A stretch of 64,000 bases of DNA from NCBI GenBank assembly GCA_965222115.1, contig CBDCTJ010000007.1:128001-192000 (forward strand), given 5' to 3'. Shown here piece after piece: positions 2,960-55,646 of this stretch. Within the stretch, counting starts at the first letter, position 1. The number at the start of each line of letters is the position of its first letter. The notes beneath the pieces are model-generated. The model was not told where the DNA came from. It made no database searches and was given only the letters and a program-made list of their open reading frames with translations. The stretch is from Planctomycetota bacterium. Lineage in GTDB: Bacteria; Planctomycetota; PLA2; JAEUHO01. The position numbers and the translations under genes were made by a program.

Positions 2960-3280
2960 CTACGTATGATTCACTTGGACGTCGCCAGCCGAAGGTGGCT
3001 CAATGGCCCCAGGCGGCAATACCGCGGGATTGCACGCCGTAACCGAGTGTGTAAAACACGACCAACTGTCCGATTCAGGCGGAAGCGCAGGACTGTTGCC
3101 GATTCGTGGCGCGATCAACACGGCATAGTCAATCATCTCCTTGACGTGCCATTTCTGCTCCTGAATGAGTCCGCCGACGGCTCCCGCTTCGATTCTGCCA
3201 ACCACTTCCATGTTGCCGGCCTTCATGATCGTAAATTCACCCATTGCGAGCAATGGCATAGCAATTTCTCCTTGGCTCAT
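2960..3280 (-). CDS. small hypothetical protein, last gene of the ECF-kinase operon
   Basis: ATGA start/stop overlap with the kinase gene. Confidence 0.6.
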   Translation of the reverse strand: MSQGEIAMPLLAMGEFTIMKAGNMEVVGRIEAGAVGGLIQEQKWHVKEMIDYAVLIAPRIGNSPALPPESDSWSCFTHSVTACNPAVLPPGAIEPPSAGDVQVNHT

Positions 3281-6117
3281 GCGAGTATCCTCCGCAACGC
3301 CGCCTCAGCTTCGCCCAATGACAGGACTTCTCTTCGCATCGACAAATCGAACGAAGAATGTGCTTTGATGGCATCTAGTGCACGCTCATACATTGTTGAT
3401 GCTTGCGTCCCCGACAACGCGAGCAAGGCTGCTGACTGTACGTCCAACAACCACATAGGTCCTACGAATGCGCCAGTGCCTGCCAAAATGTCATGTACGT
3501 CGTACGGTGAAAACCCCACGACACACGCAAGAGCACCTGCTAACGCCGACGCGCGAGCTTGTCCAAGAAACGCCCAGATGCTCTGCGCGTCACTTGAGAG
3601 TTGAAGGCAAGCCTCCCGCTCACCCCCTCTCCACGCCACGGCCGCTTCCACAAGGAAGATCATTGCAGCTTGATTGACACGACCAAGTGTCTTTGTTGCG
3701 GACACCAACCCTGTATCAACCTTCAAGTTCTCCATCATTCTATAGCCGGATGCTCGGTAAATGTACTCGGCTCGAGCTTGCCGAAACACGTGCCCCGCAA
3801 GCTTCGCTTCGCGTAGCGCAAGCGTTGAAACGTGTCGCGCTCGCTCATGTTCACCTGCATCTAACCTCGCGTCGGCTTCATTAAGCAGACATGAAAGTCT
3901 AGCACTGGGCGTGAGCGCGAACTCCGCCGCTCGTTCGTGAAAGACAGCGGCCTCTCGTGGCCGTCCTTGTCGATATTCGTACCAGCCTCGTCCCTCCTGA
4001 TACTTACATTGCCCTCCTCGCACCGAATCGGCCACACGCTCACACGCACTGAGCACGTATTCTTGTTGTTTGAGTGGCAAACTCCATGCGGCCATCAACA
4101 AGATCGACATCCAAGGCAATTGAAGTACTGGATCTTCGGGAAGAGTATCGGGATCAACCAACGCACAAGCATGATGCCCTCGCGCTTGAAGTGCGAGCTT
4201 AGCCGAGCGACACATGCGGTAGAGATACTCCAACTCTCGACCCCCTGCGGCTCCAGATTCCAACTCGGCCAAGACGGGTTCAAATCGATTGCTAGAGGTT
4301 TCCGCAAGCGCACAAAGAAAGAGGCGCCGTAGCGACTCGTAGCGACTCGTAGCATCAGCCCCCCGCCTTGACCGCACGAGGGCCAACGCGAGGTCCATTG
4401 CCTCTCGTGTTCTACCTTGGACTATTGCATCATCGACATCCTCCGGATCCGGCTCGGCCGATGACACGGGGGAGCAGACCGGCTCCCTCGCTCGAATCAC
4501 TTGATTCACTGACGGTAGCACCTCGACAAATTCTCCACGATTGCATAGCCAACCTGAGAGCTTCCAAATGGTCATCTCCGCAACGACCGCTCGTGGATTG
4601 CCACGAGTGCTCCTGTACAGAAGCGTCGATGCTCGCTTTCGATGAGAAGTCCAACGATCATTCCCAGACAGCGAGTCATGAATGTCAAGTCTGCTCATTG
4701 CCTTGAGCGAAACCGACGCACTACACTTAAGAGGCGTGCGCGAGGCGTACAAAAGGAGCGAGTGAGGGAGAGATTCGCGTAGCGCCGACAGCGCCTGCGG
4801 AGGGACGCATTCCGCGTCATCAATCACAACTACATCACTGCACCCAATCCGTGGTGGTACGATCGAACGTCCAGACGAACAGTCGAGAACGTTGCCCGTT
4901 AGCTCTACACAGGTTCGACCGCAAGATCGAAGCTCACGGACGAGTCTCTGGAGTAGCCGCGACTTTCCGACACCGGATGGGCCAAGAACTTCCACATCAC
5001 CACAGCTATTCAGTATCTTGAGTGCCGCATCATGCGCGCTGTCCGCACTTGCATGGTGGAGACAGAATGCGGAGGACGCTTCCATTGTAGGTAACAACTG
5101 AGCTATGACATCGCGTGCGGAATTTGGTCTATTTCTTGGATCACCAGCCATGAGGTCCATTAACAACTCGCGCCCAGCTCGCGGGGTGTCCTTGTACTTG
5201 TTCGGAGCGAGATGAGGTGCCCCGGACTCTCGACGAGAAAGGAGTCCATCAAGTTCGACGGGGCGGTGCGGAATTTCTCCCGTAAGCGCTTCATAGAGCA
5301 TCACGCCGATTGAATAGAGATCTGAAGACACTGAGGGAGGATCTCCCCTTAATCGCTCAGGAGACATGTACGCGATGGTACCGGCGCACTCCAGGATAGT
5401 GCCGGAAGCCGCACAAACACCTTCGCCCGTGACGAGACCAAAATCGATCAACCGAACGTCATCGCCATCAACCAATACATTCGATGGCTTGATGTCTCCA
5501 TGCGCAATCCCACACGCATGCATATGGGAAACCGCGCAGAGTACGCGGAGGATTAGGTAGGACGCCCTGTCCCAGTTGCATCGCCCCTTGAAAGCAGGAA
5601 ACGGCTGCCCGTCCACGTAGTCAGTCACAATGCAGGGATACCCCAATGCGTCGCAGAGATCCCTGTGGCTTACAATGAGTGCCGAATGTACGCGTCGCAA
5701 CGCCGATGACTCGCGTCGAGCCGCCCATTGCGCGGGGTCATCAAGCCCCGTGAGAATTTTTAGCGCGACAAGTTCTCCACTCAACGTGTCGTAGCTCTTG
5801 AACACATCACCAAACGCGCCTGATCCGAGATGCCTCTTGACCTGATACCGCTCGTCAATTGTCAGACCAAGAAAAGTCGAAGGACTGGGGCGATCGTCGC
5901 GTACTAGAATTGCGGTCTTCGATCGAAGACCTGAATGCGCGGTCGGCCTCATGAAATCATCAAGAGACACGGCATGCTTGATCAATCGCAACGCGCGCGC
6001 TAGAAGCTCGGGCGCGTGAGAGAGACAGTTCGACAAGAACGCTTCTCGATGCGGAGGTTCAAGCTCAAGCGCATCGACAACAGCCTCTTCAAGTAGATTG
6101 TCAGTGGAGCTACTCAC
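3277..6117 (-). CDS. Hanks-type Ser/Thr kinase fused to a P-loop ATPase and TPR-like helical region
   Basis: LGSGAFG, VALK, HGDIKPSN, DFG, YMSPE; Walker A GPSGVGKS, Walker B VVVIDD; planctomycete-type N-terminus; GTGA overlap with the ECF stop. Confidence 0.9.
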   Translation of the reverse strand: MSSSTDNLLEEAVVDALELEPPHREAFLSNCLSHAPELLARALRLIKHAVSLDDFMRPTAHSGLRSKTAILVRDDRPSPSTFLGLTIDERYQVKRHLGSGAFGDVFKSYDTLSGELVALKILTGLDDPAQWAARRESSALRRVHSALIVSHRDLCDALGYPCIVTDYVDGQPFPAFKGRCNWDRASYLILRVLCAVSHMHACGIAHGDIKPSNVLVDGDDVRLIDFGLVTGEGVCAASGTILECAGTIAYMSPERLRGDPPSVSSDLYSIGVMLYEALTGEIPHRPVELDGLLSRRESGAPHLAPNKYKDTPRAGRELLMDLMAGDPRNRPNSARDVIAQLLPTMEASSAFCLHHASADSAHDAALKILNSCGDVEVLGPSGVGKSRLLQRLVRELRSCGRTCVELTGNVLDCSSGRSIVPPRIGCSDVVVIDDAECVPPQALSALRESLPHSLLLYASRTPLKCSASVSLKAMSRLDIHDSLSGNDRWTSHRKRASTLLYRSTRGNPRAVVAEMTIWKLSGWLCNRGEFVEVLPSVNQVIRAREPVCSPVSSAEPDPEDVDDAIVQGRTREAMDLALALVRSRRGADATSRYESLRRLFLCALAETSSNRFEPVLAELESGAAGGRELEYLYRMCRSAKLALQARGHHACALVDPDTLPEDPVLQLPWMSILLMAAWSLPLKQQEYVLSACERVADSVRGGQCKYQEGRGWYEYRQGRPREAAVFHERAAEFALTPSARLSCLLNEADARLDAGEHERARHVSTLALREAKLAGHVFRQARAEYIYRASGYRMMENLKVDTGLVSATKTLGRVNQAAMIFLVEAAVAWRGGEREACLQLSSDAQSIWAFLGQARASALAGALACVVGFSPYDVHDILAGTGAFVGPMWLLDVQSAALLALSGTQASTMYERALDAIKAHSSFDLSMRREVLSLGEAEAALRRILA

Positions 6118-6701
6118 TCAAGCGAGTCCTTGATTCTCAACTTTGCAAATTTGATCTTTCGATAGACACTTCGCTTGCTGATTCCCACCAACGGTCCGAT
6201 CGCCTCAGGGTCGAGCCCCAACCAATAGTGCAATCGAATCATGCTACACATTTGTGGATCATCCTGCGCGAGAGCGCGAAGCGCCGTGCCAAGCCGGTCG
6301 AGGGAACCGGAAGACTTCTCAAGTTTGTCTATGTGCTCATCCAACAATCCTAGCTCAGCCACGTCGGCCAGTCGTTCTCCTGAAGTCCTCTCACGGCCCC
6401 TTCGCGCGGCCCTGGCTCTAGCGCGATCAATCAACATTCGTTCCATTGCGAGGGCTGCCCAATTCATAAAATGTTTGCGACTGCTCCATGGCGAGTCCCT
6501 TCGAATGACTCGAGCGTACAACTCGTGCACGAGATCCGTCGGCTCCAAAGACGAGTCCCTCCCCTTTCGAAGCCGGACGGCGGAGGCCATGGCCCTGAGG
6601 CGTGAGTAGAGAGCACGAAAGACCTCGTCTTCTGCGCCCGAGACTCCCTCTTGCATACCGTGAAGGAGTTCGGTGATCGATGAATCGGAATATGTAGTCA
6701 C
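6114..6701 (-). CDS. ECF sigma factor, kinase-associated (TIGR02999-like)
   Basis: ITELL...LYSRLRAMA...LEPTDLVHE...HFMNWAALAMERMLIDRAR, sigma4 HTH; GTG start at 6701 inferred from GGAGG. Confidence 0.88.
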   Translation of the reverse strand: MTTYSDSSITELLHGMQEGVSGAEDEVFRALYSRLRAMASAVRLRKGRDSSLEPTDLVHELYARVIRRDSPWSSRKHFMNWAALAMERMLIDRARARAARRGRERTSGERLADVAELGLLDEHIDKLEKSSGSLDRLGTALRALAQDDPQMCSMIRLHYWLGLDPEAIGPLVGISKRSVYRKIKFAKLRIKDSLE

Positions 6702-6966
6702 TGCTAGCGAACCTCCACGCTGAGACACTTACGATACGGAGTGAGGCGCCGTCTGTGACAGAATTGGATGACATTACGGAGTATATCGAGGCCCCTCCTC
6801 TCCCCACTGGGTGCTTGAGACGCCTCAAAATCGTCTTGGCACTCAATTTCGTGCGCGCCGTAGTCATTGATGTGAGGCGAACAATCGCCTCGTGCCGCGC
6901 TCAATCCCTTTGAGCTTGAGCGGCTTTACGAACACGATGCACGAGTACGTGCTGAATTGGAGACAC

Positions 6967-7167
6967 ATGGGCTGGTTATCGAAAGTCAAACGCATTGCCA
7001 AGCGGCACACCAAGAAGGCGTACGATGCTGGAAAGCGAACTGTAAGGAAACATGGGCACAAGATCCTCAAGAAGGCGGTAGTCGCCGGAACAACCGCTGC
7101 TGCAGGGGTCTTTGGTGGCCCCGTAGCGGGAGCTGCGGCAGGAAAAGTAGCAAAGGAGATTGTTTGA
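6967..7167 (+). CDS. 66-aa cationic amphipathic peptide with Gly/Ala-zipper C-terminus
   Basis: GGAGA RBS; MGWLSKVKRIAKRHTKKAY...GVFGGPVAGAAAGKVAKEIV; 12 K + 4 R vs 2 acidic residues; TGATG overlap with the next gene. Confidence 0.75.
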   Translation: MGWLSKVKRIAKRHTKKAYDAGKRTVRKHGHKILKKAVVAGTTAAAGVFGGPVAGAAAGKVAKEIV

Positions 7168-7487
7168 TGACGACACTTACGAATGAAGAAGCAGACACGA
7201 TCATGAGCGAAATCGGGATGCGGCGCGCAAATGAAATCACGGGCCGACTGATCGATGACGACAAGATTGACGACGACCTTGCGGCCGCGTTGGTTGATGC
7301 CACGCAAGACCAACGTCTAGAAGTAGCAGATATCATGCTCGACATTCTCGGCCTCAATGCGATCTTCTCAAGCGCGATCAAGAGCGGTGACTCGCTGGAT
7401 CCAGATGAAGTGGACGAACTCCGGCAGTACGTCGGGGAACTCGAACGCGACTCGTCTGATATCATTGCGGCTCTAGTGAGTTCTTAG
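7167..7487 (+). CDS. 106-aa highly acidic protein (putative partner or immunity protein)
   Basis: AAGGAG RBS inside the upstream gene; ATG overlaps the upstream TGA; 26 D/E vs 8 K/R. Confidence 0.75.
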   Translation: MTTLTNEEADTIMSEIGMRRANEITGRLIDDDKIDDDLAAALVDATQDQRLEVADIMLDILGLNAIFSSAIKSGDSLDPDEVDELRQYVGELERDSSDIIAALVSS

Positions 7488-7509
7488 TTCGTGAAGTCTC
7501 ACAACTAAG

Positions 7510-7583
7510 AGACGCTCACATCATGAGCGTCTTCGCCTACAGCGCGCGGGTCGCGTGTCGCGGACTCCTTGATGCGACACGCG
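7510..7583 (+). terminator. two hairpins after the peptide operon
   Basis: AGACGCTCA-5-TGAGCGTCT (7510-7532) and CGCGTGTCGC-12-GCGACACGCG (7552-7583); no long U tract. Confidence 0.5.
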
Positions 7584-7689
7584 CCCCATTCCGTGGGCTC
7601 CTATTCCGCGCGGATTCTTCGTTCAGTTCCATCTGAATTACGCGCCTTGTACTGTGCCCCTCCTACTGGGCCCAAGCGGACGCCTAGGA

Positions 7690-7706
7690 TTAAGTCAAAG
7701 ACTTAA
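7690..7706. promoter_or_regulatory. perfect 7-3-7 palindrome TTAAGTC-AAA-GACTTAA, candidate operator
   Basis: AT-rich palindrome about 45 bp upstream of the hydrolase ATG. Confidence 0.4.
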
Positions 7707-7750
7707 CAATCGCCCAATTGGGTACACGCCACCTGATTCGTAGGAAGACT

Positions 7751-8641
7751 ATGACCAATCTAAGATCCGGTAGCCAAGGACGAGATGTGCGGCGCTTGCA
7801 GGAGCGGCTTGTGCAAGCAGAACTCCTGAATGGAGAAGTAGACGGAGTGTTCGGCGCAGCGACTGAATCCGCCGTACGGTCATTCCAGATGCAAAACGGC
7901 CTGACCGTCGACGGAACTGTAGGACCAAAAACAACGGCGTGGCTCGATGTTGTCGTTTCGGAATCGACAGTACTTGAAGAGGACAATCGGTTGCTGGCGA
8001 AACTAAGAGAGGTAGTGACGACCACCGCGCCGAGGCCAGCTCCTGCGCCCGTTGCAAGGGGTGATGCTCCGATGATCGGTCTAGAAAGCCGTGCTGCTGC
8101 GGTTGTTCTCGCGGCAACTTCTGAGTGGAATCAGATCGTGCATGAGCCGAAGGGAAATGGGTGGGAACGTATCGACGAGTACATTCGTGGACCAGAGGGA
8201 ATCGATTGGGGCTGGGAGAGTAGATATGTTGCAAACAGGCAATTTAAGTGGTGCGGCGCATTCGCTGCTTTCTGCTTTCACGCAGCAGGACTCAAACACG
8301 AGATTCGCAAGCGCGTCATGCCTTCCACGTATCGCATTCACAAGTGGGCGGCCGGTAGCACACGCATGATTCCACACCGAGACGTGTTGCCGGGCGACAT
8401 CGTGCTAGTCGGGCCAAATCAGGGCAAGATTTGGGGCAACCACATCACGATATGCAAATCCGTTGAATTGGCCACGGAATCCATCACCACGCTTGAGGGC
8501 AACGCAAAGGGCATGGGACCGGACGGTGCGTTCTACGAAGGAGTCATTTCGCGTGCGAGGCCCTTTGAGACTCCGAGCCTTCCTTCTCGCAAGTACCGAA
8601 TCAAGCACGTTGTGCGTCCTCTCCCCAGCGACTATGTGTAG
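7751..8641 (+). CDS. peptidoglycan-binding (PG_binding_1) plus CHAP-like cysteine amidase
   Basis: LRSGSQGRDVRRLQERL...VDGVFGAATESAVRSFQ...GLTVDGTVGPKT; WCGAF (Cys), PGDIV, NHIT (His), TLEGN; no signal peptide. Confidence 0.85.
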   Translation: MTNLRSGSQGRDVRRLQERLVQAELLNGEVDGVFGAATESAVRSFQMQNGLTVDGTVGPKTTAWLDVVVSESTVLEEDNRLLAKLREVVTTTAPRPAPAPVARGDAPMIGLESRAAAVVLAATSEWNQIVHEPKGNGWERIDEYIRGPEGIDWGWESRYVANRQFKWCGAFAAFCFHAAGLKHEIRKRVMPSTYRIHKWAAGSTRMIPHRDVLPGDIVLVGPNQGKIWGNHITICKSVELATESITTLEGNAKGMGPDGAFYEGVISRARPFETPSLPSRKYRIKHVVRPLPSDYV

Positions 8642-9616
8642 TTATGCATCGGGGGATATATACGAACTAGATATGTTCACCGAAACGAGTACGACCCGAA
8701 CTTGAATCGCAATCAAGCGTTCCAGAAATGCGAGCGCTGGAGATTCCAGCGATTGCCTTGCCGTGATGCGGCCCCCGAAAGGGCCAACGCGTCGACTCCA
8801 AATGATTTCGTCGTAAGGTGGGTCTCAAGTAGCACCCACTTTGGACGCCATAGAACTGTCCTCGGATCATGGAGAATGATTGGTATGTCTCGAGCAGCGA
8901 CACGCCTAGTCTTGGCTCTTGCTTCCGATTGCGGCGAGGAGAATCGGGTCGAATTGGACCTGCCCCCTACCCAATGCCTCCACTCATTTTCGAAGAACCA
9001 CTCTCAGCTGTCCGTTCCATACTTGTGATTCCGTTTCCTCAGGCGCACAGATGGAGGTCGATCTCAAGGAGCGGAACGGGATCGTGACTCCGAGTACAGG
9101 CCGCCGGGTGGGAACAACACCGTGCAGGGTCTAGTTGGAGGCATCGGACGTTGTACGGAGGATCGGCATTACGGTCATGTTGGCAATGCCGCACCACTTC
9201 AACTTCAATGCGGGCATCAGCGACGAGTTGAAGAAGTTCAACGCGGGAGGTGAGTACAAATTGTCACAGCGCCCCATCAACGTGAACCGAATCGAATAGT
9301 AGGCTGAACCGCAAGGCTCGAGATTCAAGCATGCTGATCAGCCAAGTCTGCTGCATGTTTCGTTCGAACACTCGTACGCCTGGATCGCTGAGAGAATCGC
9401 ACCACCCTCATAGTGTATTGCAACGAGATGCAGTGACGTGGAACGGCAACAGCCGATTCACGACATAGACGTGCTTCCCCGAAACCGCAACCTGCATCAA
9501 GTTCGACACTTGCGGCTTGCCCACACCGGCCTGCCAAACCGGAGGTCGCAAGTTTGAGCATGTTCTGAGCTTGTCGAATGGGTTTCGTCACTCCCGTCAT
9601 TCCCCCTCCGATAGCA

Positions 9617-9696
9617 ACTGCGTCGCCCGGCCACCACGCTACCTCCCCGCGACCGGGTGAGAGGATAGGCCGAAATGTTATTGGAGGCGGTAAGGG
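9617..9696. repeat. ~80-bp direct repeat, copy 2
   Basis: Aligns with 21-101. Confidence 0.9.
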
Positions 9697-9810
9697 AGTG
9701 GGTCAACATGGATCGTTGGTTCGATCTAAACTTGGGGTCGCGCTGCGCGAGGGGCGCAAAATCGTCGCGATTCGACGGCCGTTGACCTTGGCTGCGCAAC
9801 ACAAGGTGAT

Positions 9811-11572: not shown

Positions 11573-14122
11573 CTACTTTGCCTGAAGCTGAATCACAACC
11601 TCTGCAGGCTCTCCGCTAAGGAGTCGAACGTCTTGAGGTGGAATCGTCTCGTAGCCAGGGATAGGCCCTAGCACGAGCCTATAGTTGCCCGGCTTAGCCA
11701 TCGTTATCCCAAGGGAACTATCCCCGTAGTAGATCTCGCGAAGTTGCTCAACCGTAGTGCCATTTCGCTGGAGCTCCGCACGCCAATGCATGTTCCAGGG
11801 AATGTTCGTCGTGCCTTGCATCAGACGCACGCGGAGCGTCGCGGTAGGCCTCACTTCGAGCGTCGTTTCGACTCGTGACTCATGTAGGGAGATTCGCTCG
11901 GGACCACCAAAATGGGTGTATCCCAACGATCGAATCTCGTAGTCGCCAAAGGGTACGCGAACTCTGAACGGCTGCGTAGGCGCCTTGCGTTGAATCGCCT
12001 TCCACCCCCTACCACTGTCGATCGCCCGAAACCCCAACGTCGAAATGGGAGCGTCTTCGTCGCCCGAGGTATGAACATCGAGCGTTGCAGGGGGAGGAAT
12101 CGCAATGCGAATGAACGAATCGGTTGGCGCACTCATGTCAATACTCGTGGCGTACCCGAAGTGAGGGAAGCTCAACCCATAAGGCCCTCTAGGTAGCGAA
12201 CCTGCATTGAACTTAATGACGCGAGGCTCATCGGGATCTGAAGTGAGCCCCTTACCTAGAGACAGGGACCGGAGAACGTGAGGCCGCCCCATCCCCGGTG
12301 CAGGGGTTGTACCGTCCAATCGAGATAATGACCGTGAATCAGAGTTGGTCAATCGATAAGGGAAGTGTGGCGTCACATGCATCACGATGTGATCAATGGA
12401 CCAATCTTGGGGAACCACCAATTCGCCTGCAACGATGGCGTGCTCGCGTTTCCCAGGAGGTGAATATCTCACTTGAACATCGGTCGATTCACCAGGCGCT
12501 ATGAGAAATCGAGCTTCACCGATATTGACGGAACCGCCGATGTCCCCCGTTAGATGTAAGCGTGCCAAAAACGAACCCGGAGTCAAGCCTTCGATGTTCA
12601 CCGTGCCCGAAGACGAAATGGTCCGCCTCGCTGTCACGTGTCGTGTAGATTCCGGTGGACCATAGAGGTAGAGCGTGGCAGGCCATGGGAGCGTATCGCC
12701 AACGAGCTCAATCGACACCGTACCTGCGCGATGCAGTTCGACCGTTTGCTGATGCCCGTCAAAGACCTTTATCTGAACGTTGCTCCACGCGTAGCCCGGG
12801 GCGCCTACGCGGTAGTCAACCTCTTCCATACCAACTTCGAGGGTGGTGATTCGGTGCTCAATAGGATTCATAACGAGGTCCCCCAGTTTGGCTCCAGCGC
12901 GAGGCGTTCGCTCGTTGACTTCGTCGTTTGACTGACCAGTCAGACTAATCATGTGGACTTCGGGGATCAACAACCCCGTCTCGGCGTCCACAACACGAAG
13001 CCTCAGATTGGGCACAAGGCGCGCATGGATATCGACTTGATGACTGCCATGTAGCTCCAAGACTTCATCGGGCGACATGATCTGAGCAAGCGCCGATCCA
13101 ACCTCGATGTACGAAAACATGAGCTGTGAGTGAGACTTACGGACATCGCACGTATAGCGTCCTTGATCGATCTTCGCTGTAATGAGTTCTTCGGTGTTTC
13201 CGCCCATGGACACCAAATGGAGTTTCCCTAAGTCGGATGAAACGGAGTCACCCCGCATGTCCACCACAGACACGACGCCCTGCACGCGCGAAACCGCTGC
13301 TCGCGGCTTGACGTGAGTGGCGATGTCATGCGCAGGCCCGGACGCTCCCTCGTCGGCTTCCTTCCCCGACTTGGTTGGCCTCACGCCAACGAGCACGACG
13401 GGAGACGATGTAACCTCACTTGCGATTGCGGGCAATGTCACGGCATCTTGCTCGGAACGTGCCATGACAACATCCTGGCTCTTCGGTTGCAACACGCGAT
13501 GAACAGCCCACCCTGCTGCCAATAGCGAAACTAGAGCCGTGGCCACGATCACGACCGGAGAGATCGAAAGAGCCACTCCTGGTGTGCCTCGAGCAATACC
13601 ATTCATCGACACGAATGCCAGAGGCCACGCGCGTCCTTCGCGATCTTCCAACTCTCGTCGAAGATCGGCCATGGCACGCTTCAAGCGAGTCTTGATGGTC
13701 TCAACGGGTGCGTTCAATCGTGCGGCAATATGGCGTGGCGCAAGATCCTCGAAAAATCGAAGTTCAATCACCTCGCGCTTGGCGGGCGACAGCTTGCAAA
13801 TCGCCGAGACGACGGACTGGGCTTGTTCGATTCGTTCCATACGCAAGTCGGGCTGCTCTTCCACCGCACCGATACGACTCGACTTCTCACGTGCGCTTCG
13901 CCTTGCATCAGATCGCCACGACTTACGCACAACGTTGCGCATGACTTGCGAGAGCCAGGCACGCGTGGTGGAACCCCGGCGAGGCGGCGACTTGAGTGCT
14001 ACGAGCAGTGTCTCTTGGAGCGCGTCATCCGCGGCCGCCGCGTCGTGAACCAATGCACGGGCAAGACGTTTCAACGGCTCGATATGCTTGACGATCTCTG
14101 CGGGTGTAGTGAGGGGTGGCAT
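11573..14122 (-). CDS. ECF sigma factor with TM helix and large extracytoplasmic beta-sandwich (carboxypeptidase-regulatory-like) extension
   Basis: LARALV...ADDALQET...AWL; sigma4 REVIELRFFEDL...VETIKTRLKRA; TM about aa 185-205. Confidence 0.88.
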   Translation of the reverse strand: MPPLTTPAEIVKHIEPLKRLARALVHDAAAADDALQETLLVALKSPPRRGSTTRAWLSQVMRNVVRKSWRSDARRSAREKSSRIGAVEEQPDLRMERIEQAQSVVSAICKLSPAKREVIELRFFEDLAPRHIAARLNAPVETIKTRLKRAMADLRRELEDREGRAWPLAFVSMNGIARGTPGVALSISPVVIVATALVSLLAAGWAVHRVLQPKSQDVVMARSEQDAVTLPAIASEVTSSPVVLVGVRPTKSGKEADEGASGPAHDIATHVKPRAAVSRVQGVVSVVDMRGDSVSSDLGKLHLVSMGGNTEELITAKIDQGRYTCDVRKSHSQLMFSYIEVGSALAQIMSPDEVLELHGSHQVDIHARLVPNLRLRVVDAETGLLIPEVHMISLTGQSNDEVNERTPRAGAKLGDLVMNPIEHRITTLEVGMEEVDYRVGAPGYAWSNVQIKVFDGHQQTVELHRAGTVSIELVGDTLPWPATLYLYGPPESTRHVTARRTISSSGTVNIEGLTPGSFLARLHLTGDIGGSVNIGEARFLIAPGESTDVQVRYSPPGKREHAIVAGELVVPQDWSIDHIVMHVTPHFPYRLTNSDSRSLSRLDGTTPAPGMGRPHVLRSLSLGKGLTSDPDEPRVIKFNAGSLPRGPYGLSFPHFGYATSIDMSAPTDSFIRIAIPPPATLDVHTSGDEDAPISTLGFRAIDSGRGWKAIQRKAPTQPFRVRVPFGDYEIRSLGYTHFGGPERISLHESRVETTLEVRPTATLRVRLMQGTTNIPWNMHWRAELQRNGTTVEQLREIYYGDSSLGITMAKPGNYRLVLGPIPGYETIPPQDVRLLSGEPAEVVIQLQAK

Positions 14123-14612
14123 TACCTACTGTATCCCACGGCGGTACATTCGGGTTCAGAGTGCCTTTCGTCTGATTACTTGGACAAACGCATTCGCTCA
14201 ATTATCGGTGCAACCAGTATCCCGGTCGTCGTTTGGAATGTGCGATTACCAAAACGTGTACCTGCGTTGGGTTTTCAATGACGAAGACTTGAAAAGGAAA
14301 CCGCACTTTCTGCCTCGGGCGCAACCGAAACTCGCCGAGTCACTGTGACTAAAGCATCGCTAGAACTAGCGGCATCGAGTTTCCGACAAGACTCCCATGA
14401 GGCAAGATCGGATGCAGAGAGCCGCAGGGACGCGTTTCGGCAACAGCCGATTTGTGACATGAATGCCTCACCAGTAATCCATAAGCATCGTTGGTGTCGC
14501 CACTTAAGACCCACCCCCACCCGCATGTCGAGTGGGTCCCGTTACTCTGGGGCTGTCCAATAATTCTCATTTTGATTGAAATGAATTGGCGCCGAGTGGT
14601 TAGGTGGAGGTG

Positions 14613-16844
14613 ATGGGACGCATATCAACCAGCATGTGGTCCGCTTGGCTATCTACGCGTGACAATAGTGTGTTCGAGGGGCTCGTACGACCCGAGTTGC
14701 CAGCGCTCTACGACGCCGCACGTAGGACCGGGCTTGGTTCGCACGACGCGGAAGACATCGTGCAGGAAGCCCTGAGTGAGTTGGCGCGGGATCATAGCCA
14801 ACGACCGGGCCAAGTCGGCGTGGGCGCATGGTTGATGCGTTCGGTGCGCCTGAAGGCGCTGGGGCGAATTCGTTCGAAGCGGCGTCGGCGAAGGCATGAA
14901 AGGCGAAAGCCCGAGCGTGCCGCAGAACGCCAAGGCGATCGACTCGAGTTTCACGATGAGATTGAGCAAGCGTTGGAGAAGCTAGGTGCGGCGGACCGGC
15001 AAGTTCTGCTGTTCCGATTTCTGTATGACCTCGACTACCGTGAGATTAGCTACGTCTTAGGCGTCTCGGAAAACGCGTGCCGCATTCGCGTTCACCGCGC
15101 GTCCACACGAATGCGAGAGCATGTAGGTGCCCGCGCGCCAACGATGCTCGCGCTGATGCCGTTGTGTGATTTGCCCAACACTGCCAGCGTGCTCGCGACG
15201 GCAACCAAAGCAGCAGGAACTGCAGGCGGCGCATGGGCCGCGTGGACCGGAGGCGTTCTCATGGGTACGGGACTGAAAATGGCAAGCTCCGCGGCGATCG
15301 CCGCGGCCCTCACTGCAGGCGTGGTGTTGACAACAATGGATCAAGAGCAACCCGCTCTGGATCCCAACAGCGAACCAGTCATCGTGGCTGAGTCGACAAC
15401 GGAAACGGCAGAACCTAGCCTCACGGTTCGCGAACGTCAGGCGTTCGAAACGCTTAACCCGACGGAAGAGGAAATCGCTTGGCTAAAAGCTCGACTGAAA
15501 GAGGAACGTAATCGCCGAGCACAGGCGCACGTGCAACCGAGCGACTCGGGCATTGACATATTGCGACGCGCTATCGATCACGGTATGGATCCATGGCAGC
15601 TCATGGCCGACTTCGAGCGGTTTAGCAGCCACGTGCGAACGGGCGAAGGACGGCGAGAGACGTATGTGGCGTCTGGAGAAGAAACGACCAAAGTAAGTCT
15701 TGCCAAGGCCCTGAAGGAAGGCGTGTGCGTGATCGAGTTCGGGCCTGGCATTTTTGACGTGACAGGGCTGCATTACCTCAGTAGGACGAAACCGATCCAT
15801 AGTCTGGAGTTCATCGGCGCAGGAATGAACAAGACAACGCTCAACATGGCGCGTCACGAAGAGTTGCTCGTTACCGAGGAACTCAGCAACTTGCGATTCC
15901 GCGATTTGACACTGGACTACGGCACAGAATGTGAATTGCTGGACGTTCGGGATGCAACGGCCGCAATCTTGGAGCGCGTTCGGATTCGAAACTGGGGTAC
16001 AGGCGCCGGATACAGCGCAGCGATCGGTGTAGCCGGCATGGCGTACCTAGGGTGCACAGACTGTGAATTCGAACACACAGAGGGATGCGGAGGAGGATTC
16101 GCTGCAGACTTCCGGGGACCGGGTGTCGCCGTTTTCGAGCGCTGTGTGTTTCGCGACATACGCAGTACCGTACTCGGGGATCAAAACGCCAAAGGGAGCC
16201 AGGTGTTATTTAACGGCTGCACGTTTACTGACTCAGCGCTCACGGACAGTCGCATAGGCACGAGAGACGGTACATCCTCGCTTGAGATCCGCGTAAAGAG
16301 TTCGAGCGCTACCTATGGCGGTACCGAATGGACTCAGGAATATCGTCGAGAGCGCTGGGGCACACAGTTCGCCGCAGAAATTAGGGACACCACGATTGAG
16401 CCCAGTCAGAATTCGTGTACATCCGCGGATCTAGTCGCAGCGTTGCAGCTTCTTGACTTGCCAAGCAATGAAGTTGTGCACCACGTCAGCGTGATGCGGT
16501 TTATGGAGGGAGAGATTAGCGCACTCTCCCTTAACGCACACGTGTCCGGCAAGCGACAGACGAAGACGTATACCTGCCTGCTCAAGGACGGCGAGTGGAT
16601 TGTCCGTGTCAACCCAAGGGGCGGTGGGTATGGATATCATCTAGCCGATGAACACAACCCACAGGAACTGACCACCTTGTTGGCAGCGGTGCCACCGGAC
16701 TATCAAATTCGTAGCGCAGTCCTGCAAATGGTAGGTACTGCCAAAGAGCCAGTGCCTGGCCTCTATGTAAAAGATGATCACGGATCGAAAACGCTCCCCG
16801 TCATCATTCACGCAGAAACCGGCAAAGTTCTCACGCCACGCTAG
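14613..16844 (+). CDS. ECF sigma factor with TM helix and C-terminal parallel beta-helix-like domain
   Basis: DAEDIVQEA, LDYREISYVLGVSENACRIRVHRA; FGPGIFD, FIGAGMNKT and FxxCxF repeats. Confidence 0.85.
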   Translation: MGRISTSMWSAWLSTRDNSVFEGLVRPELPALYDAARRTGLGSHDAEDIVQEALSELARDHSQRPGQVGVGAWLMRSVRLKALGRIRSKRRRRRHERRKPERAAERQGDRLEFHDEIEQALEKLGAADRQVLLFRFLYDLDYREISYVLGVSENACRIRVHRASTRMREHVGARAPTMLALMPLCDLPNTASVLATATKAAGTAGGAWAAWTGGVLMGTGLKMASSAAIAAALTAGVVLTTMDQEQPALDPNSEPVIVAESTTETAEPSLTVRERQAFETLNPTEEEIAWLKARLKEERNRRAQAHVQPSDSGIDILRRAIDHGMDPWQLMADFERFSSHVRTGEGRRETYVASGEETTKVSLAKALKEGVCVIEFGPGIFDVTGLHYLSRTKPIHSLEFIGAGMNKTTLNMARHEELLVTEELSNLRFRDLTLDYGTECELLDVRDATAAILERVRIRNWGTGAGYSAAIGVAGMAYLGCTDCEFEHTEGCGGGFAADFRGPGVAVFERCVFRDIRSTVLGDQNAKGSQVLFNGCTFTDSALTDSRIGTRDGTSSLEIRVKSSSATYGGTEWTQEYRRERWGTQFAAEIRDTTIEPSQNSCTSADLVAALQLLDLPSNEVVHHVSVMRFMEGEISALSLNAHVSGKRQTKTYTCLLKDGEWIVRVNPRGGGYGYHLADEHNPQELTTLLAAVPPDYQIRSAVLQMVGTAKEPVPGLYVKDDHGSKTLPVIIHAETGKVLTPR

Positions 16845-21237: not shown

Positions 21238-22164
21238 TCACTTGAGATATTTCGCCGCGGCGTATCCGACATACGCATGTCCGCTACTCATGTATCTGCA
21301 CTTGCACCACTCCTTGCCCTTCTCCAGCACTTGGACCACATGCCCCTTCGGCATTTTCACCACAACGTTCGAAGCTGAGGATGCACTCTCTCGAAGATTC
21401 AAATCGCTCCCTGCCGTATTCACTTTCTTGTTTGGAGTTGGAGCGATCTTCCACAGAGAGACGGACGACGAATCCCGGAGATCCTTCGTTCGCCCATAGA
21501 GGGACTTCTCAAGGAAATCAGAAATGAATTTGCCGCGAAACAGCCCCTTCCCGATTTCGGAGAAGTGGTGCATGCTCACCGACTGAGGCGCTGCACCCTT
21601 TTCAATGAGAATGAACCCTGTGTGAGAGTTACCGATCTCCCCCTTTTTGGGTAGCCGTCGATCCTTGCCCTTGCCGATGTAGTAGGCACGATTCTTGGCC
21701 TTCGCGTTTCTTAGGTCGAAGTAGAACGTTCCGGTGGGAAGAGTTCCTTTCTTAGCGCGACCAATGAAATCGGTAAGTGAGAGACCAGCGATCTCCTCTT
21801 GAAGGCCGAAATAGTCGGCAGTGTCGCCACCAAACCACTGATGCGCCCAACGGTAGTCCTTTCCGCCTCGCGTCCCGTCGCCCTTTAGAACGCGAAAGTC
21901 GCCCGCCAGAAGAAGTTCGGCAAGTACCGGAGCTGCGAAGGAATTGCACGCGAGACCTTTCTTGTCTCCGGCGAGATTCCCAAACGTGTCAACATACCCA
22001 CCCCATGTGTACTTGAGCTTCTTTCCGTTCGCCTGCGACTTCCATTTCGCGACGAGCTTATCGATTGACTTTACCAGCTTCTGGCCCGTGGATGGATCCT
22101 CCGAGCAAGCCGACAGCGACATGAGTGACGCTGCAAGGACGATCGAAATCGACAGGTGCTTCAT
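21238..22164 (-). CDS. lipoprotein with divergent NlpC/P60-like domain and C-terminal SH3b
   Basis: Lipobox LSAC; KYTWGG, GLACNSF, SHTGF, MHHFS; LNLRESASS...VV...KG..V.VLE...WCK...GY (SH3b). Confidence 0.7.
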   Translation of the reverse strand: MKHLSISIVLAASLMSLSACSEDPSTGQKLVKSIDKLVAKWKSQANGKKLKYTWGGYVDTFGNLAGDKKGLACNSFAAPVLAELLLAGDFRVLKGDGTRGGKDYRWAHQWFGGDTADYFGLQEEIAGLSLTDFIGRAKKGTLPTGTFYFDLRNAKAKNRAYYIGKGKDRRLPKKGEIGNSHTGFILIEKGAAPQSVSMHHFSEIGKGLFRGKFISDFLEKSLYGRTKDLRDSSSVSLWKIAPTPNKKVNTAGSDLNLRESASSASNVVVKMPKGHVVQVLEKGKEWCKCRYMSSGHAYVGYAAAKYLK

Positions 22165-22331
22165 CTCAACTCCCAAAGATGTTAGATCTCATGCTGAGCG
22201 TATCAGCCCCCATTGGGAGGTCATCGTCGATACGTAGCGGTCGTGGGCAGTGAAACGGCTATAGAGGCGATTTCGATCGGCATTCGTGCCTGCGGACTGA
22301 CTTGAGCACGGCACGGATTGAGCAATCGCCA

Positions 22332-34155: not shown

Positions 34156-34525
34156 GCCATTAGGGGCATCTTGTTGATGTCCCTTTCGTTTCCCGGCAGA
34201 CTCATGGAAAGGCGTGAACGGCGCGTTCGTCCTCTTTGTGCTCCATGAACGGGGAAGAGGAAGACGTCTCGAAACTAGAAACGGGCATTCGGTCGCCAAA
34301 TTCCAAGTGAACTCATTGGCGGAAGATCCAATCGCAGCCCGTACTGCCGCCGAAAGTGCATACCGCGCTATGCACCTGAGATCCGACGCGGTGCTATTCG
34401 ACCTGTATGAAAACGGCGTGATGCACAGGTGGAAATCGGATCGTAGATCCGTCGGTTTGCCAACGTACAAAGATATAATGGCGTGTACAGCACTCGCACA
34501 TCGGGCGAGTGCATTCGGAGGACGC

Positions 34526-35029
34526 GTGACGCCCACACGCAAATCTCTCTTGGCCATCGCGCTTGGCATTCCCCTTGGCATCGGCATCTTTTCGTTTCAC
34601 TACGCCGGTGGCACGTCGTACCTAAGTAGCAACCCCACCGCCTGTGCCAATTGCCACATCATGGATCACCACTACGATTCGTGGCAGAAGGGGAGCCATC
34701 ATGGCGTTGCTACGTGCGTGGATTGCCACTTGCCCGCATCGGGCATCGAAAAGTACGTGGCCAAAGCCATCAACGGCTACAACCACTCCAAGGCCTTCAC
34801 GCTACAGAATTTTCATGAACCCATCATGATTGGCGAGGCCAACAGCAAGATCTTGCAGGAGAACTGCGTGCGCTGTCACGGCGATCTCTTGCACGAAACC
34901 ATGACGGGATCGTCCACACGCTACGAACCCGGTCGATGTGTCCATTGCCATCGTTCCGTTGGACACGGGCAATGGCTTGGCGTCGGCGGACCCGATCGCG
35001 GCGCTGCCAAGGAAAGTGAGGCTCGATAA
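34526..35029 (+). CDS. nrfH: cytochrome c nitrite reductase small subunit (NapC/NirT family)
   Basis: GGAGGA RBS plus GTG; N-terminal TM; four CXXCH (CANCH, CVDCH, CVRCH, CVHCH). Confidence 0.92.
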
Positions 35030-36471
35030 TGGAATCCGAGAAGGCGCACACCAACAAGCAGCGCGGAGGCGGCTGGTGGTGGTTGATTCTCCTTGCGACA
35101 ATGATTGTGACGGCGCTCGTTACGGCGTTGCTCGTCAACATCATGGAGCGCAAGCAAGAGGCGAAGACGCCCTTTGTGCGTGTGGTAGAGGTGGATGAAG
35201 ACACCACCGACGCTGCCGAATGGGGTAAGAACTGGCCGCGGCAATATGACGGCTACCTGCGCACCGCGCAGGCAACCCGCACGCGTTTTGGAGGTCATGG
35301 CGGCAGTGAGGCCATGCCCGAAGAGAAAATCGAGCGCGACCCGTGGCTCAAGCGCATGTTCTTAGGCTATGCGTTCTCGATTGACTACCGCGATCGACGA
35401 GGCCACGCCTATATGCTCCACGATCAGGAGCAAACCGAACGATTGACGAAACCTCAGTCAGGCTCATGCCTTCACTGCCACGCGTCCATCATGCCTGTGT
35501 ATCGCGAGCTTGGCGACGGCGATGCCGCAAAGGGCTTCGCCAAGACGTACTCGATGTCATACAAGGAACTCAATGCCAAGTTGCACGAGAGTGGACACGG
35601 CCATCCTGTGTCCTGCGTTGACTGCCACGATCCCAAAACGCTTGAGATTCGCGTGACCCGTCCGGGCTTCATTGAAGGCATTCAAGCGCTGGCGGCAGGC
35701 AACGCCCCGGTGCCCCATATTCCCTCCATCGAGCTCTGGCGCAAAGGGGACCGCAAGACGCCCTACGACCCGAACCGAGACGCGAGTCGCAATGAGATGC
35801 GCTCCTTTGTGTGTGGGCAGTGCCATGTGGAGTACTACTGCTCGAGCGACTTCAAGTTGACCTTTCCGTGGGGCGAAGGGCTCAGCGTAGAGCAGACCGA
35901 GAGTTTCTGGAACAACACCAAACTCTCGTCGGGCGAGCGCTTCTTTGATTACAAGCACAAGGAAACCGGTGCAGCGATTTTGAAAGCGCAACACCCCGAG
36001 TACGAACTCTGGAGTCAAGGTATTCACGCTCGCAGTGGCGTGTCGTGCGCCGACTGCCATATGCCCTACATGCGCGAGGGTGCGTCCAAGATATCCGATC
36101 ACTGGGTTCGAAGTCCCCTGCTCAACATCAATCGTGCGTGTCAGACTTGCCACCACGTTGCTGAATCTGAACTCAAAGCACGCGTCGACTCCATTCAGGA
36201 CAAGAATCGCGCGCTCATGTTACGTGCAGGCGCCGCACTCATGGACCAGCTCGACGCTATCGTGAAAGCGCGGAAGGAGGGCGCTACTGATGAGCAGTTG
36301 GCCGAGGCCCTGGAGTTTCAGCGCAAGGCACAGTGGCGCCTCGATTTCATTGCCGCAGAAAACTCGATGGGCTTTCACGCGCCACAAGAAGCGGCACGCA
36401 TCTTGGGCGAAGCCGCCCACATGGCGCGCGAAGGCCAGATCGCGGCCATGAAATGGAACGAGGCAAAATAG
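35029..36471 (+). CDS. nrfA: pentaheme ammonia-forming cytochrome c nitrite reductase (CXXCH-type first heme)
   Basis: GYAFS..Y...[51 protein letters not shown]. Confidence 0.93.
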
Positions 36472-54565: not shown

Positions 54566-54642
54566 ACACCCTTACAACGCACGACGAAGTCCTTGGATTC
54601 GTCGCCCTTGCCTCAATTGCCTGCCGTGCCTTGCCCATGACG

Positions 54643-54671
54643 GGTTAGACCGACTGGCTGGTTAGACCGAC
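54643..54671. repeat. direct repeat GGTTAGACCGAC x2
   Basis: Copies at 54643-54654 and 54660-54671 in the ECF/anti-sigma intergenic gap. Confidence 0.8.
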
Positions 54672-54691
54672 CGGAGCGGGCGGGTAGCAAC

Positions 54692-55486: not shown

Positions 55487-55646
55487 TGCTCTCTCTTCTA
55501 TAGCGCCATTTGCACGCCTGTGGGACAGGGATTTCCAATTCATACGACGCAAACTGATACACGGCACCTCGGTCGAGGTTTCGAATCGAGAGCAACGGCC
55601 GGGAAGGCGAACCCGCGCCGAAATCGACTGCCCGCGTCACGCGCGA

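Follow-up and report, generated by a model that had tools for sequence, protein, structure and literature searches.

Two overlapping genes in a stretch of planctomycetotal DNA encode a 66-residue protein of net charge +14 and a 106-residue protein of net charge -18, and this pair is tentatively read here as a coupled module in which a membrane-active peptide is accompanied by its cytoplasmic keeper, the favoured use being the export of a neighbouring endolysin-like hydrolase. A first-pass annotation had drawn attention to the two genes, their sizes and opposite charges and the TGATG that joins them, all of which translation and composition confirm. The acidic partner belongs to a conserved acidic family of very few known members, and neither protein matches a named family. 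The window referred to throughout is the whole 64-kb stretch of DNA that was analysed.

Gene boundaries and coding evidence

The stop codon of the peptide gene and the start codon of the partner gene overlap by one base within TGATG, and each gene has the ribosome-binding site of its own that had been claimed for it (Table 1). Among the 2166 ATG triplets of the whole window, GGAG or GAGG is found at -16..-4 of 7.9 % and AGGAG at the same distance of 1.3 %. The mechanical ORF list places the starts elsewhere, at GTG 6892 (91 residues) and at TTG 6957 (176 residues, out of frame where it covers the peptide), and the view that these are miscalls is borne out by a public protein collection in which the 66- and 106-residue proteins are both present with exactly the starts of Table 1, at 100 % identity and coverage. 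Gene callers thus side with the shorter forms, and the description of the peptide as hidden is true only of the naive ORF track. A longer peptide beginning at GTG 6892 or ATG 6937 was rejected, neither codon being preceded by a Shine-Dalgarno motif and the extension having a coding score of 0.024.

Both genes look coding. Measured against 66-codon windows of 22 reference genes (0.238 +/- 0.121 in frame, -0.332 +/- 0.130 off frame), the peptide scores 0.183 and the acidic partner 0.374 per codon, the remaining five frames of each region scoring below the coding frame. Among the 473 mechanical ORFs of at least 50 residues in the window, the lysine fraction peaks in the ORF that contains the peptide; the positive charge density of this ORF is equalled or exceeded in 13, these being Arg-rich, and the acidity per residue of the partner is matched in none. 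The pattern GxxxGxxxGxxxG occurs four times in the 127,996 residues of the six-frame translation of the window, one of these occurrences being that of the peptide. Paralogues of the peptide or the partner were not found in the window, and Rfam and tRNA scans of it gave no match.

Table 1. Position and character of the features at the locus (window coordinates)
Feature	Position	Strand	Description
Ser/Thr kinase-NTPase protein	3277-6117	-	946 aa; operon with ECF sigma gene, upstream of the pair on the opposite strand
ECF sigma factor	6114..6728	-	PF07638, TIGR02999-like; 4-nt overlap with kinase-NTPase gene
Shine-Dalgarno-like GGAG of peptide	6958..6961	+	5 nt 5' of ATG 6967
Basic peptide gene (P0003)	6967..7167	+	ATG 6967, stop TGA 7165-7167, 66 aa
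Peptide residues 1-36	6967..7074	+	Lys-rich, net +13, predicted amphipathic helix
Peptide residues 37-59	7075..7143	+	uncharged Ala/Gly/Val tail, 23 residues
Glycine zipper G47xxxG51xxxG55xxxG59	7105-7143	+	broken by G50-G51-P52
Shine-Dalgarno AGGAG of partner	7154..7158	+	within 3' end of peptide gene, 8 nt before ATG 7167
Acidic partner gene (P0001)	7167..7487	+	ATG 7167, stop TAG 7485-7487, 106 aa
Three stem-loops	7482-7510, 7510-7532, 7548-7587	+	straddle, then follow, partner stop; none of three with a T-run
Peptidoglycan hydrolase-like protein (P0002)	7751..8641	+	PG_binding_1 N-terminal, endolysin/TIGR02594-like C-terminal domain

The basic peptide

The peptide contains 12 Lys and 4 Arg against 1 Asp and 1 Glu, and 18-residue windows starting at residues 1-20 have hydrophobic moments of 0.51-0.72. 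A single-sequence structure model of modest confidence (pLDDT 69) predicts helices at residues 3-29, 31-49 and 51-65, the helix break falling at G50-G51-P52, and the last seven residues include two Lys and one Glu. The tail had been described as a hydrophobic Gly/Ala zipper, of which the zipper itself stands, G47, G51, G55 and G59 being correctly spaced, but it is interrupted by P52 and its hydrophobicity is weak, with a KD-19 maximum of 1.34. The KD-19 threshold for a membrane span is usually taken as 1.6. In characterised toxins and channels, the glycine zipper drives oligomerisation in membranes. The earlier statement that the peptide has neither signal nor leader agrees with the absence of any N-terminal hydrophobic stretch, all KD-19 windows starting at residues 1-27 being negative; a double-glycine leader was likewise rejected, no G[G/A/S] lying ahead of the zipper.

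Searches with the peptide led to no named family. Only PF20721 and PF08461 were listed in a Pfam scan at E <= 1, the PF20721 match (a score of 18.4 bits where the cut-off is 30, peptide residues 22-61 against profile positions 31-71) being below threshold and probably compositional, and no cecropin, bacteriocin or holin model of Pfam or NCBIfam was matched at E <= 1. The best ESM Atlas match scored 0.88, to unnamed clusters, where 0.9 marks more than a lead, and the ESM 'recognition' value of the peptide is low. A 24-residue stretch of the peptide was not found in the literature searched. The peptide found only itself in a word-indexed homologue search of a large protein collection, a blank that says little, since the same type of search missed every relative of the partner.

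The acidic partner and its family

The partner contains 17 Asp and 9 Glu against 2 Lys and 6 Arg, and its AlphaFold2 model consists of four helices with a pLDDT of 92.5. Transmembrane segments are absent, since even the 19-residue window of highest hydrophobicity contains two Asp. Seven relatives of 104-112 residues, 31-46 % identical in alignment and derived from metagenome or environmental assemblies, were drawn from 1.84 billion representatives and a 5.8-billion-cluster collection, which makes the family a very rare one; one of these relatives is recorded on 21 contigs, of up to 171,990 nt. All six relatives whose charge was computed have a net charge of -13 to -26, and acidity is therefore a trait of the family. 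Nine alignment columns are invariant, among them N22, G26 and Q49-R50, hinting that the partner has a specific site and is more than a polyanion. Judged by this alignment, the partner is a member of a real but rare family, unnamed and uncharacterised.

No match to the partner was obtained from Pfam, NCBIfam, PHROG, PADLOC, the PDB or viral structures. Pfam searches of seven members of the family gave one weak match in one member (E = 0.014), sequence searches of the PDB returned nothing under E = 0.3, and Foldseek comparison of the partner model with the PDB and BFVD returned no match at E <= 0.001. The top Foldseek matches, all above that value, were generic helical hairpins and designed bundles. 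A word-indexed search with the partner returned only the partner itself and missed its true relatives, the ESM Atlas gave no usable match, and two genome-collection scans gave 385 and 38 pattern matches of which none was confirmed as a relative. Complex prediction for the partner family with the peptide gave scores of 0.00 and 0.01, the mark being 0.32; coming from control-free runs, they weigh neither for nor against binding.

Genomic setting

The hairpins reported to follow the pair are present; three stem-loops were found and the fold z-score of positions 7480-7720 is -5.67. They are possible terminators or mRNA-stabilising structures, and no terminator-like site is listed on the plus strand at 7482-7587. 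On the plus strand the pair is followed, after 263 nt, by the gene for the hydrolase-like protein, which matches PG_binding_1 at 2.5e-18 and, over residues 172-281, PHROG endolysin families at 9.7e-8 and 6.4e-7. Its mechanical ORF starts at TTG 7718, and the probable start is ATG 7751, after AGGA. The first 60 residues have a KD-19 maximum of 0.67, so that the protein shows no hydrophobic N-terminus or signal peptide. Only its PG-binding domain matches phage records, and coverage reaches at least 80 % in none of 554 of these.

The setting is chromosomal rather than that of a phage, no phage structural or replication domain having been found in the 64-kb window. The first-pass annotation had also considered phage virion proteins and homologues confined to phage capsid modules; tblastn of the peptide and the partner against phages and plasmids gave no match at E <= 1, and searches of both proteins at E <= 0.1 gave no match in PADLOC and no holin or antiholin match in PHROGs. 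ABC, HlyD, type I and other secretion domains did not turn up, at the thresholds applied, in the 53 window ORFs scanned, several of which have no match of any kind.

Interpretation

Under the preferred reading, itself rather less likely than not, the first gene would give a protein whose first 36 residues form an amphipathic helix of charge +13 and whose last 30 carry an uncharged glycine-zipper helix-break-helix, and the second a soluble, all-helical protein of charge -18. Given the translational coupling, the partner is presumably made in amounts equal to the peptide; it would bind the peptide in the cytoplasm and hold it soluble or inactive until needed, following the toxin-and-antidote logic of self-protection. 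The peptide might then control membrane permeabilisation for the signal-less hydrolase in a holin/antiholin-like or 'type 10 secretion'-like manner, possibly under the control of the ECF sigma/kinase operon upstream on the other strand. The charge-complementary, coupled anatomy had been rightly described. A toxin with a keeper is a reasonable inference, and within it a holin/antiholin-like role is slightly favoured over a secreted bacteriocin. The Shine-Dalgarno motifs, the one-base overlap, the extreme opposite charges and the conserved acidity of the partner family count in favour of this module, as do the glycine zipper of the peptide, the confident all-helical model of the partner, an endolysin-like hydrolase without a hydrophobic N-terminus as the next gene on the strand, and the precedents, compared below, of EsxX, of the T4 antiholin and of non-phage holin/hydrolase modules. 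Against it count the lack of any match to a holin, toxin, antitoxin, immunity or bacteriocin model, the weak hydrophobicity of the tail, P52 within the zipper and the N-terminal position of the charged domain, together with the lack of known peptide relatives, and so of any sign that the two genes are inherited jointly, and the invariant N22, G26 and Q49-R50 of the partner. The absence of phage genes from the window and the limited resemblance of the hydrolase to phage records weigh on the same side, and the pair and the hydrolase need not share one transcript, given the three strong hairpins and the 263 nt between them. The boldest form of the proposal, a non-phage lysis or export switch in which a 66-residue zipper pore-former, founding a new bacterial class of cecropin-like peptides, is held by a dedicated, all-helical polyanionic keeper of a new family and released for the signal-less hydrolase on a trigger from the ECF sigma factor and Ser/Thr kinase, is improbable.

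The module as preferred competes with three other accounts, of which a non-toxic role is the least doubtful, being unlikely rather than remote. The basic protein would then serve a housekeeping or regulatory function on nucleic acid, polyphosphate or an anionic membrane surface or as a membrane anchor, with the acidic protein as its chaperone, mimic or regulator, and this is consistent with a tail whose hydrophobicity may fall short of a classical membrane span, the modest single-sequence model of the peptide, the specific non-acidic invariant residues of the partner, the chromosomal setting among regulatory genes and the lack of matches to defence, toxin and phage models. Yet matches to nucleic-acid-binding or other families are likewise absent from Pfam and NCBIfam, a family with seven known relatives is unlike a housekeeping function, and the extended zipper, rare in the six-frame translation, is associated with activity in membranes or aggregates in the parts of the zipper literature covered (PMC12744356, PMC5380434).

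A self-contained antimicrobial, the reading of the first-pass annotation, in which a leaderless bacteriocin or toxin directed against other cells, or a toxin of the toxin-antitoxin kind, is paired with a charge-complementary immunity protein or antitoxin, is considered quite unlikely, although the results neither support nor contradict it directly. It would account for a cationic amphipathic helix-hinge-tail peptide without a leader and for the coupling of two oppositely charged products, and parallels exist in the accounts covered of glycine-zipper bacteriocins of 84-86 residues in Caulobacter (PMC5380434) and of a zipper toxin of S. aureus neutralised by soluble cytoplasmic immunity proteins (PMC12744356). 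However, no bacteriocin, cecropin, toxin-antitoxin or PADLOC model is matched, and the exporter domains missing from the window are of the ABC-type and type I kinds that leaderless and Cdz systems use as far as those sources were covered (PMC6131525, PMC5380434). A charge of +14 also lies beyond the range of leaderless bacteriocins in the table rows covered (+2 to +8; PMC6131525), two of the four Cdz-like features, the leader and the uninterrupted zipper, are wanting (PMC5380434), and the known neutraliser ExiB is, in the portions covered, an alpha/beta DUF5085 protein rather than an all-helical one (PMC12744356), no DUF5085 match being listed for the seven family members. That the acidic gene alone is real and the 66-codon frame an untranslated leader, open by chance, is very unlikely. 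The score of the peptide is below the in-frame mean, its ESM value is low, and no relative was found in the word-indexed collection, the ESM Atlas, phages or plasmids, but that score sits comfortably among in-frame values and clears the off-frame ones by a wide margin, with the other five frames lower. GGAG at its proper distance, the exact stop/start overlap and a gene caller's prediction of precisely this protein also argue for translation, the peptide is rich in Lys where the spurious ORFs in this GC-rich DNA are rich in Arg, and the blank search is of a type blind to the partner's relatives too.

If the keeper module is real, it would represent a new, sequence-unrelated answer to the problem of making a membrane-damaging peptide harmlessly in the cell's own cytoplasm, would give a function to a rare acidic family that environmental assemblies alone have yielded to date and would make a very short, highly cationic glycine-zipper peptide a candidate pore-former. 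If it serves the hydrolase, the pair would count as a holin/antiholin-like system of unusually small size that belongs to no phage. If none of this holds, it is an ordinary pair of lineage-restricted small genes.

Comparison with known systems

Cecropins, which animals secrete and synthesise with a signal peptide, have a Trp near the N-terminus and a cationic amphipathic helix that a Gly-Pro hinge links to a C-terminal helix of lower polarity. The cecropin-type architecture proposed earlier holds for the layout, the peptide beginning with a cationic amphipathic helix headed by Trp and continuing through a hinge into a tail of small residues, albeit in a helix model of modest confidence, but there is no match to PF00272 at E <= 1 and no signal peptide. 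With the C19orf12-like glycine-zipper membrane proteins (PF20721), the peptide shares an Ala/Gly-rich zipper region, although that profile spans 163 positions and the peptide 66 residues.

The charged domain of typical holins is C-terminal, whereas that of the peptide is N-terminal. Holin/antiholin/endolysin cassettes, as described in the sources covered, offer a likeness in that a small protein directed to the membrane and its soluble partner in the cytoplasm are encoded beside a signal-less cell-wall hydrolase. A cytoplasmic antiholin is on record for phage T4 (T-RIII; PMC8385771, in the part covered), and non-phage holin/hydrolase secretion modules have been described under the name 'type 10 secretion' in partly covered accounts. 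The present locus differs in its weak hydrophobic segment, in the lack of a holin or antiholin family match and of phage genes nearby, and in the hairpins and intergenic distance that separate the pair from the hydrolase start.

Leaderless bacteriocins have the absence of a leader in common with the peptide, but those in the table rows covered (Table 2, PMC6131525) carry a net charge of +2 to +8, against +14 on 66 residues here. Characterised cases in the portion of that review covered use ABC-type transporters, although it finds no consensus on transporter and immunity neighbours (PMC6131525), and no ABC transporter lies near the peptide. CdzC and CdzD of Caulobacter crescentus are contact-dependent glycine-zipper bacteriocins of 84-86 residues with a type I exporter (PMC5380434). 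Within the part of that report covered, Cdz-like proteins are 60-151 residues long and combine an extended glycine zipper with a short C-terminal end that carries charge, a description into which the peptide fits; a leader ending in G[G/A/S] is absent, however, its only G-G and G-A pairs (50-51 and 55-56) lying inside the zipper, and the zipper of the peptide is not merely flanked but interrupted by proline, P52 standing between G51 and G55 where Cdz-like zippers are uninterrupted by Pro or charged residues (PMC5380434). Cdz clusters also include genes for type I secretion and for an immunity protein that is small and transmembrane (PMC5380434); neither is present here, the partner being soluble and acidic.

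By analogy, the closest precedent for the proposed mechanism is EsxX of the S. aureus type VII secretion system (T7SS), a depolarising glycine-zipper toxin that is neutralised in the producer cytoplasm by the soluble proteins ExiA and ExiB, according to the sections covered (PMC12744356). The zipper is defined there as (G/A/S)xxxGxxxG or GxxxGxxx(G/S/T), a definition that G47-G51-G55-G59 satisfies (PMC12744356). The likeness extends, as far as EsxX is described in that part of the report, to a membrane-acting zipper on the C-terminal side and to a soluble cytoplasmic protector that is encoded beside the toxin and acts before export. EsxX is, on the same partial description, a large LXG-domain substrate of the T7SS, whereas the peptide here has 66 residues with neither LXG domain nor T7SS, and no LXG or DUF5085 Pfam match was found for the peptide, the partner or the seven members of its family. 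The alpha/beta DUF5085 proteins ExiA and ExiB bind the zipper through a hydrophobic groove in the account covered; the partner described here is all-helical and very acidic, and its putative binding might involve the cationic N-terminus of the peptide instead of the zipper.

An overlapping gene pair of opposite charge

The 66-aa basic peptide (P0003) and its 106-aa acidic partner (P0001) are encoded by genes that share one base, the A of the peptide TGA being the A of the partner ATG at 7167. The peptide contains 12 Lys and 4 Arg against 1 Asp and 1 Glu, the partner 17 Asp and 9 Glu against 2 Lys and 6 Arg, giving net charges of +14 and -18, exactly the figures of the first-pass annotation. 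That annotation also held that the naive ORF track uses other starts, which it does (GTG 6892, 91 aa; TTG 6957, 176 aa), and that each gene has its own ribosome-binding site, found as GGAG 5 nt upstream of the peptide ATG and AGGAG 8 nt upstream of the partner ATG. GGAG or GAGG lies at -16 to -4 of 7.9 % of the 2166 ATG triplets in the window and AGGAG of 1.3 %; similar Shine-Dalgarno motifs precede many well-supported window genes, and the alternative starts 6892 and 6937 have no such motif upstream. The genes are hidden from the naive ORF track only, since letter-identical 66-aa and 106-aa proteins are already on record in a large public collection, from a contig of 3,070,730 nt. The pair is compositionally striking, and the earlier description of its sequence is real and accurate.

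By a codon log-odds score trained on 22 window genes with Pfam domains, the peptide frame reaches 0.183 and the partner frame 0.374 per codon, compared with 0.238 +/- 0.121 for in-frame and -0.332 +/- 0.130 for off-frame reference windows of 66 codons, every other frame of both regions scoring below the coding frame. Among 473 mechanically listed ORFs of at least 50 aa, Lys makes up the largest share of residues in the one containing the peptide; 13 others equal or exceed it in positive charge density, all of them Arg-rich, as expected of spurious frames in 57 % GC DNA, and none equals the partner in per-residue acidity. That the peptide frame, with a score below the in-frame mean and well above the off-frame one, is not translated is very unlikely, and the partner, judged by the existence of relatives, is certainly a real gene.

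The acidic partner family

Searched exhaustively with phmmer, 1.84 billion representatives yield six relatives of the partner besides the query (E 6.6e-18 to 7.5e-7, 33-47 % identity, 104-112 aa), and a profile search of a 5.8-billion-cluster collection returns four of these again together with one new member, P0010, without re-finding P0004 and P0005. A word-indexed search with the same protein returned the query alone, so that blanks from this method do not amount to orphan status for short proteins. The relatives come from assembly and metagenome collections (labels lgn, ena, jgi and ncbi), on contigs spanning 861 to 171,990 nt, one relative being present on 21 contigs. Two scans of a species-representative genome collection gave 385 and 38 pattern matches and no confirmed relative, the first scan missing the window's own gene though the first of its search patterns fits P0001.

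Acidity is conserved across the family, with net charges of -13 to -26 in the six relatives for which it was computed (all but P0010). In the alignment of eight sequences the relatives match P0001 at 31-46 % of positions, and nine columns do not vary (N22, G26, L42, A45, Q49, R50, D55, D78 and E81). The AlphaFold2 model of P0001, built from a seven-row alignment, is confident (mean pLDDT 92.5, pTM 0.78) and has four helices (6-25, 34-43, 47-72 and 79-105). P0001 has no significant match in Pfam, NCBIfam, PHROGs or PADLOC, Pfam gives a single weak match in one of all seven family members, a PDB sequence-profile search finds nothing below E = 0.5, and Foldseek of the model against the PDB and viral models gives no match at E <= 0.001. 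The partner defines a rare family without a name.

The basic peptide

Residues 1-36 of the peptide carry +13 of its net charge, and their helical hydrophobic moment is high (0.51-0.72 in 18-residue windows starting at residues 1-20). Residues 37-59 are uncharged, made up of Ala, Gly, Val and Thr, and include a glycine zipper, G47-x3-G51-x3-G55-x3-G59, with G50-G51-P52 in its middle, while the final seven residues are polar or charged. The window's six-frame translation, 127,996 residues long, contains the four-glycine pattern just four times. Single-sequence AlphaFold2 predicts helices at 3-29, 31-49 and 51-65 with modest confidence (pLDDT 69). A Kyte-Doolittle value of 1.6 over 19 residues is usually required for a membrane span, and the weakly hydrophobic tail reaches a lower maximum of 1.34. 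As had been claimed, there is no signal peptide, since the N-terminus lacks a hydrophobic stretch. The zipper conforms to the definition quoted in PMC12744356.

The sole profile match is to the glycine-zipper family PF20721, which the Ala/Gly region reaches with a sub-threshold 18.4 bits, the cut-off being 30; NCBIfam gives nothing above noise, and PHROGs and PADLOC give nothing. No relative is found by word-indexed search, in the ESM Atlas, or by tblastn against phage and plasmid records. Because the word-indexed method missed all partner relatives and the exhaustive phmmer search was made with the partner alone, the lack of a known peptide relative carries little weight.

Genomic surroundings

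The window is ordinary chromosome, containing metabolic genes, several sigma factors and an ISL3 transposase; its 64 kb include no genes for phage structure or replication. Upstream of the pair, two inverted repeats could be operator or leader structures. The hairpins said to follow the pair are there, the 241-nt stretch that holds them folding far better than shuffles (z = -5.67). The cell-wall hydrolase-like protein P0002 beyond them has PG_binding_1 at residues 21-76 (2.5e-18) and matches to two PHROG endolysin families at residues 172-281 (9.7e-8 and 6.4e-7), with TIGR02594 below cut-off and no Pfam family at E <= 1 for the C-terminal domain. It has neither a hydrophobic N-terminus nor an export signal, and its matches in phage genomes are limited to the PG-binding domain (554 records, none covering at least 80 % of the query).

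Features of the window around and beyond the gene pair
Feature	Coordinates	Strand	Details
Ser/Thr kinase gene	within 3277-6728	-	946 aa; NTPase-like middle (weak P-loop/STAND-like matches, ~residues 360-413), long C-terminal part; PADLOC matches (mad6, PD-T4-6, MkoA) confined to kinase domain; overlaps ECF sigma gene by 4 nt
ECF sigma factor gene	within 3277-6728	-	204 aa; PF07638 (3e-25)/TIGR02999-like, by profile match; 238 nt upstream of peptide gene
Inverted repeats	6874-6891; 6898-6922	+	perfect, 7-nt arms; between ECF sigma and peptide genes
Peptide gene (P0003)	ATG 6967, stop TGA 7165-7167	+	66 codons; sequence and translation
Partner gene (P0001)	ATG 7167, stop TAG 7485-7487	+	106 codons; sequence and translation
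Three stem-loops	7482-7510; 7510-7532; 7548-7587	+	directly after partner stop; none with T-run
Hydrolase-like gene (P0002)	7751-8641	+	ATG 7751 preceded by AGGA; domain matches
Stretch 3' of hydrolase gene	8642-9800		~1.1 kb; no ORF with family match; only short frames that overlap and whose coding value is doubtful
Sigma-70 genes facing apart	11573-14122; 14604-16844	-; +	849 and 746 aa; each with N-terminal regions 2 and 4 and a very long C-terminal extension without known domain
SH3_3 protein gene	21238-22176	-	312 aa; Lys-rich (11.5 % K); SH3_3 at C-terminus; near N-terminus (nt 22111) one of three further GxxxGxxxGxxxG matches in the window
Cytochrome genes	34214-36471	+	NapC/NirT-type tetrahaem cytochrome, then directly cytochrome c552 (7.3e-122); looks like an NrfH/NrfA nitrite-reductase pair
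Four-gene row	49846-55567	-	sigma-70 region 2 protein (291 aa), matchless protein (203 aa), CHAT-domain protein (932 aa), S8 subtilase (438 aa); window GC maximum (0.61-0.63)
Transposase gene	57130-58386	-	ISL3 family (DDE_Tnp_ISL3, 9.8e-69); sole mobile-element gene seen in the window

Proposed role and alternatives

Gene coupling, the extreme opposite charges, the family-wide acidity, the cationic amphipathic helix with its glycine zipper, and the adjacent signal-less hydrolase together suggest that the peptide may be a membrane-active small protein which the partner would bind in the cytoplasm and keep harmless, the likeliest of the readings compared, though one we hold tentatively. Its favoured but unproven sub-case links the pair to the hydrolase, whose lack of an export signal makes a holin/antiholin-like role attractive; against such a role stand the weak hydrophobic segment of the peptide, the N-terminal rather than C-terminal position of its charged domain, the hairpins between the pair and the hydrolase gene, and the lack of a match to any holin. 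Alternatively, the basic protein may be non-toxic and the acidic one its chaperone or regulator, a reading only slightly less likely than the first.

An exported bacteriocin or a classical toxin-antitoxin, close to the toxin/immunity pair first proposed, is improbable. Of the cecropin architecture invoked for it, the peptide shares the layout; a match to the cecropin profile and a signal peptide are both lacking, and the peptide is twice as long as a cecropin and carries roughly double the charge. Leaderless bacteriocins carry +2 to +8 in the consulted rows of a review table, against +14 here, and those characterised depend on transporters of the ABC type both to be secreted and to confer immunity (PMC6131525, in part); no transporter domain is found among 53 window ORFs scanned. 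With the Cdz-like glycine-zipper bacteriocins, as described in part of PMC5380434, the peptide shares two of four sequence criteria, length and a short charged C-terminus, but it differs in the other two, having no leader with G[G/A/S] at its end and a zipper that Pro interrupts, and neither type I secretion genes nor a membrane immunity protein of the Cdz type, as that portion describes them, is found in the window. Membership in any of these three groups cannot be claimed.

Comparison with known systems

For a holin/antiholin-like role, precedents described include the cytoplasmic antiholin of phage T4 (PMC8385771) and non-phage holin/hydrolase "type 10" secretion modules. No description of the pair was found in the part of the literature searched (peptide string; glycine zipper with holin or immunity). 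Among the literature compared, the closest experimentally established mechanism appears to be that of S. aureus EsxX, whose C-terminal glycine-zipper toxin depolarises membranes from the cytoplasmic side; in the producer, two soluble proteins, ExiA and ExiB, neutralise it, and a groove of ExiB sequesters the zipper (PMC12744356, in part). Unlike the pair described here, ExiA and ExiB belong in that account to the DUF5085 proteins, with an alpha/beta fold, and EsxX is secreted as a large LXG substrate, so that the likeness is one of logic and not of family. The proposed mechanism would follow a logic of a kind already known, carried by sequences that are new and unrelated.
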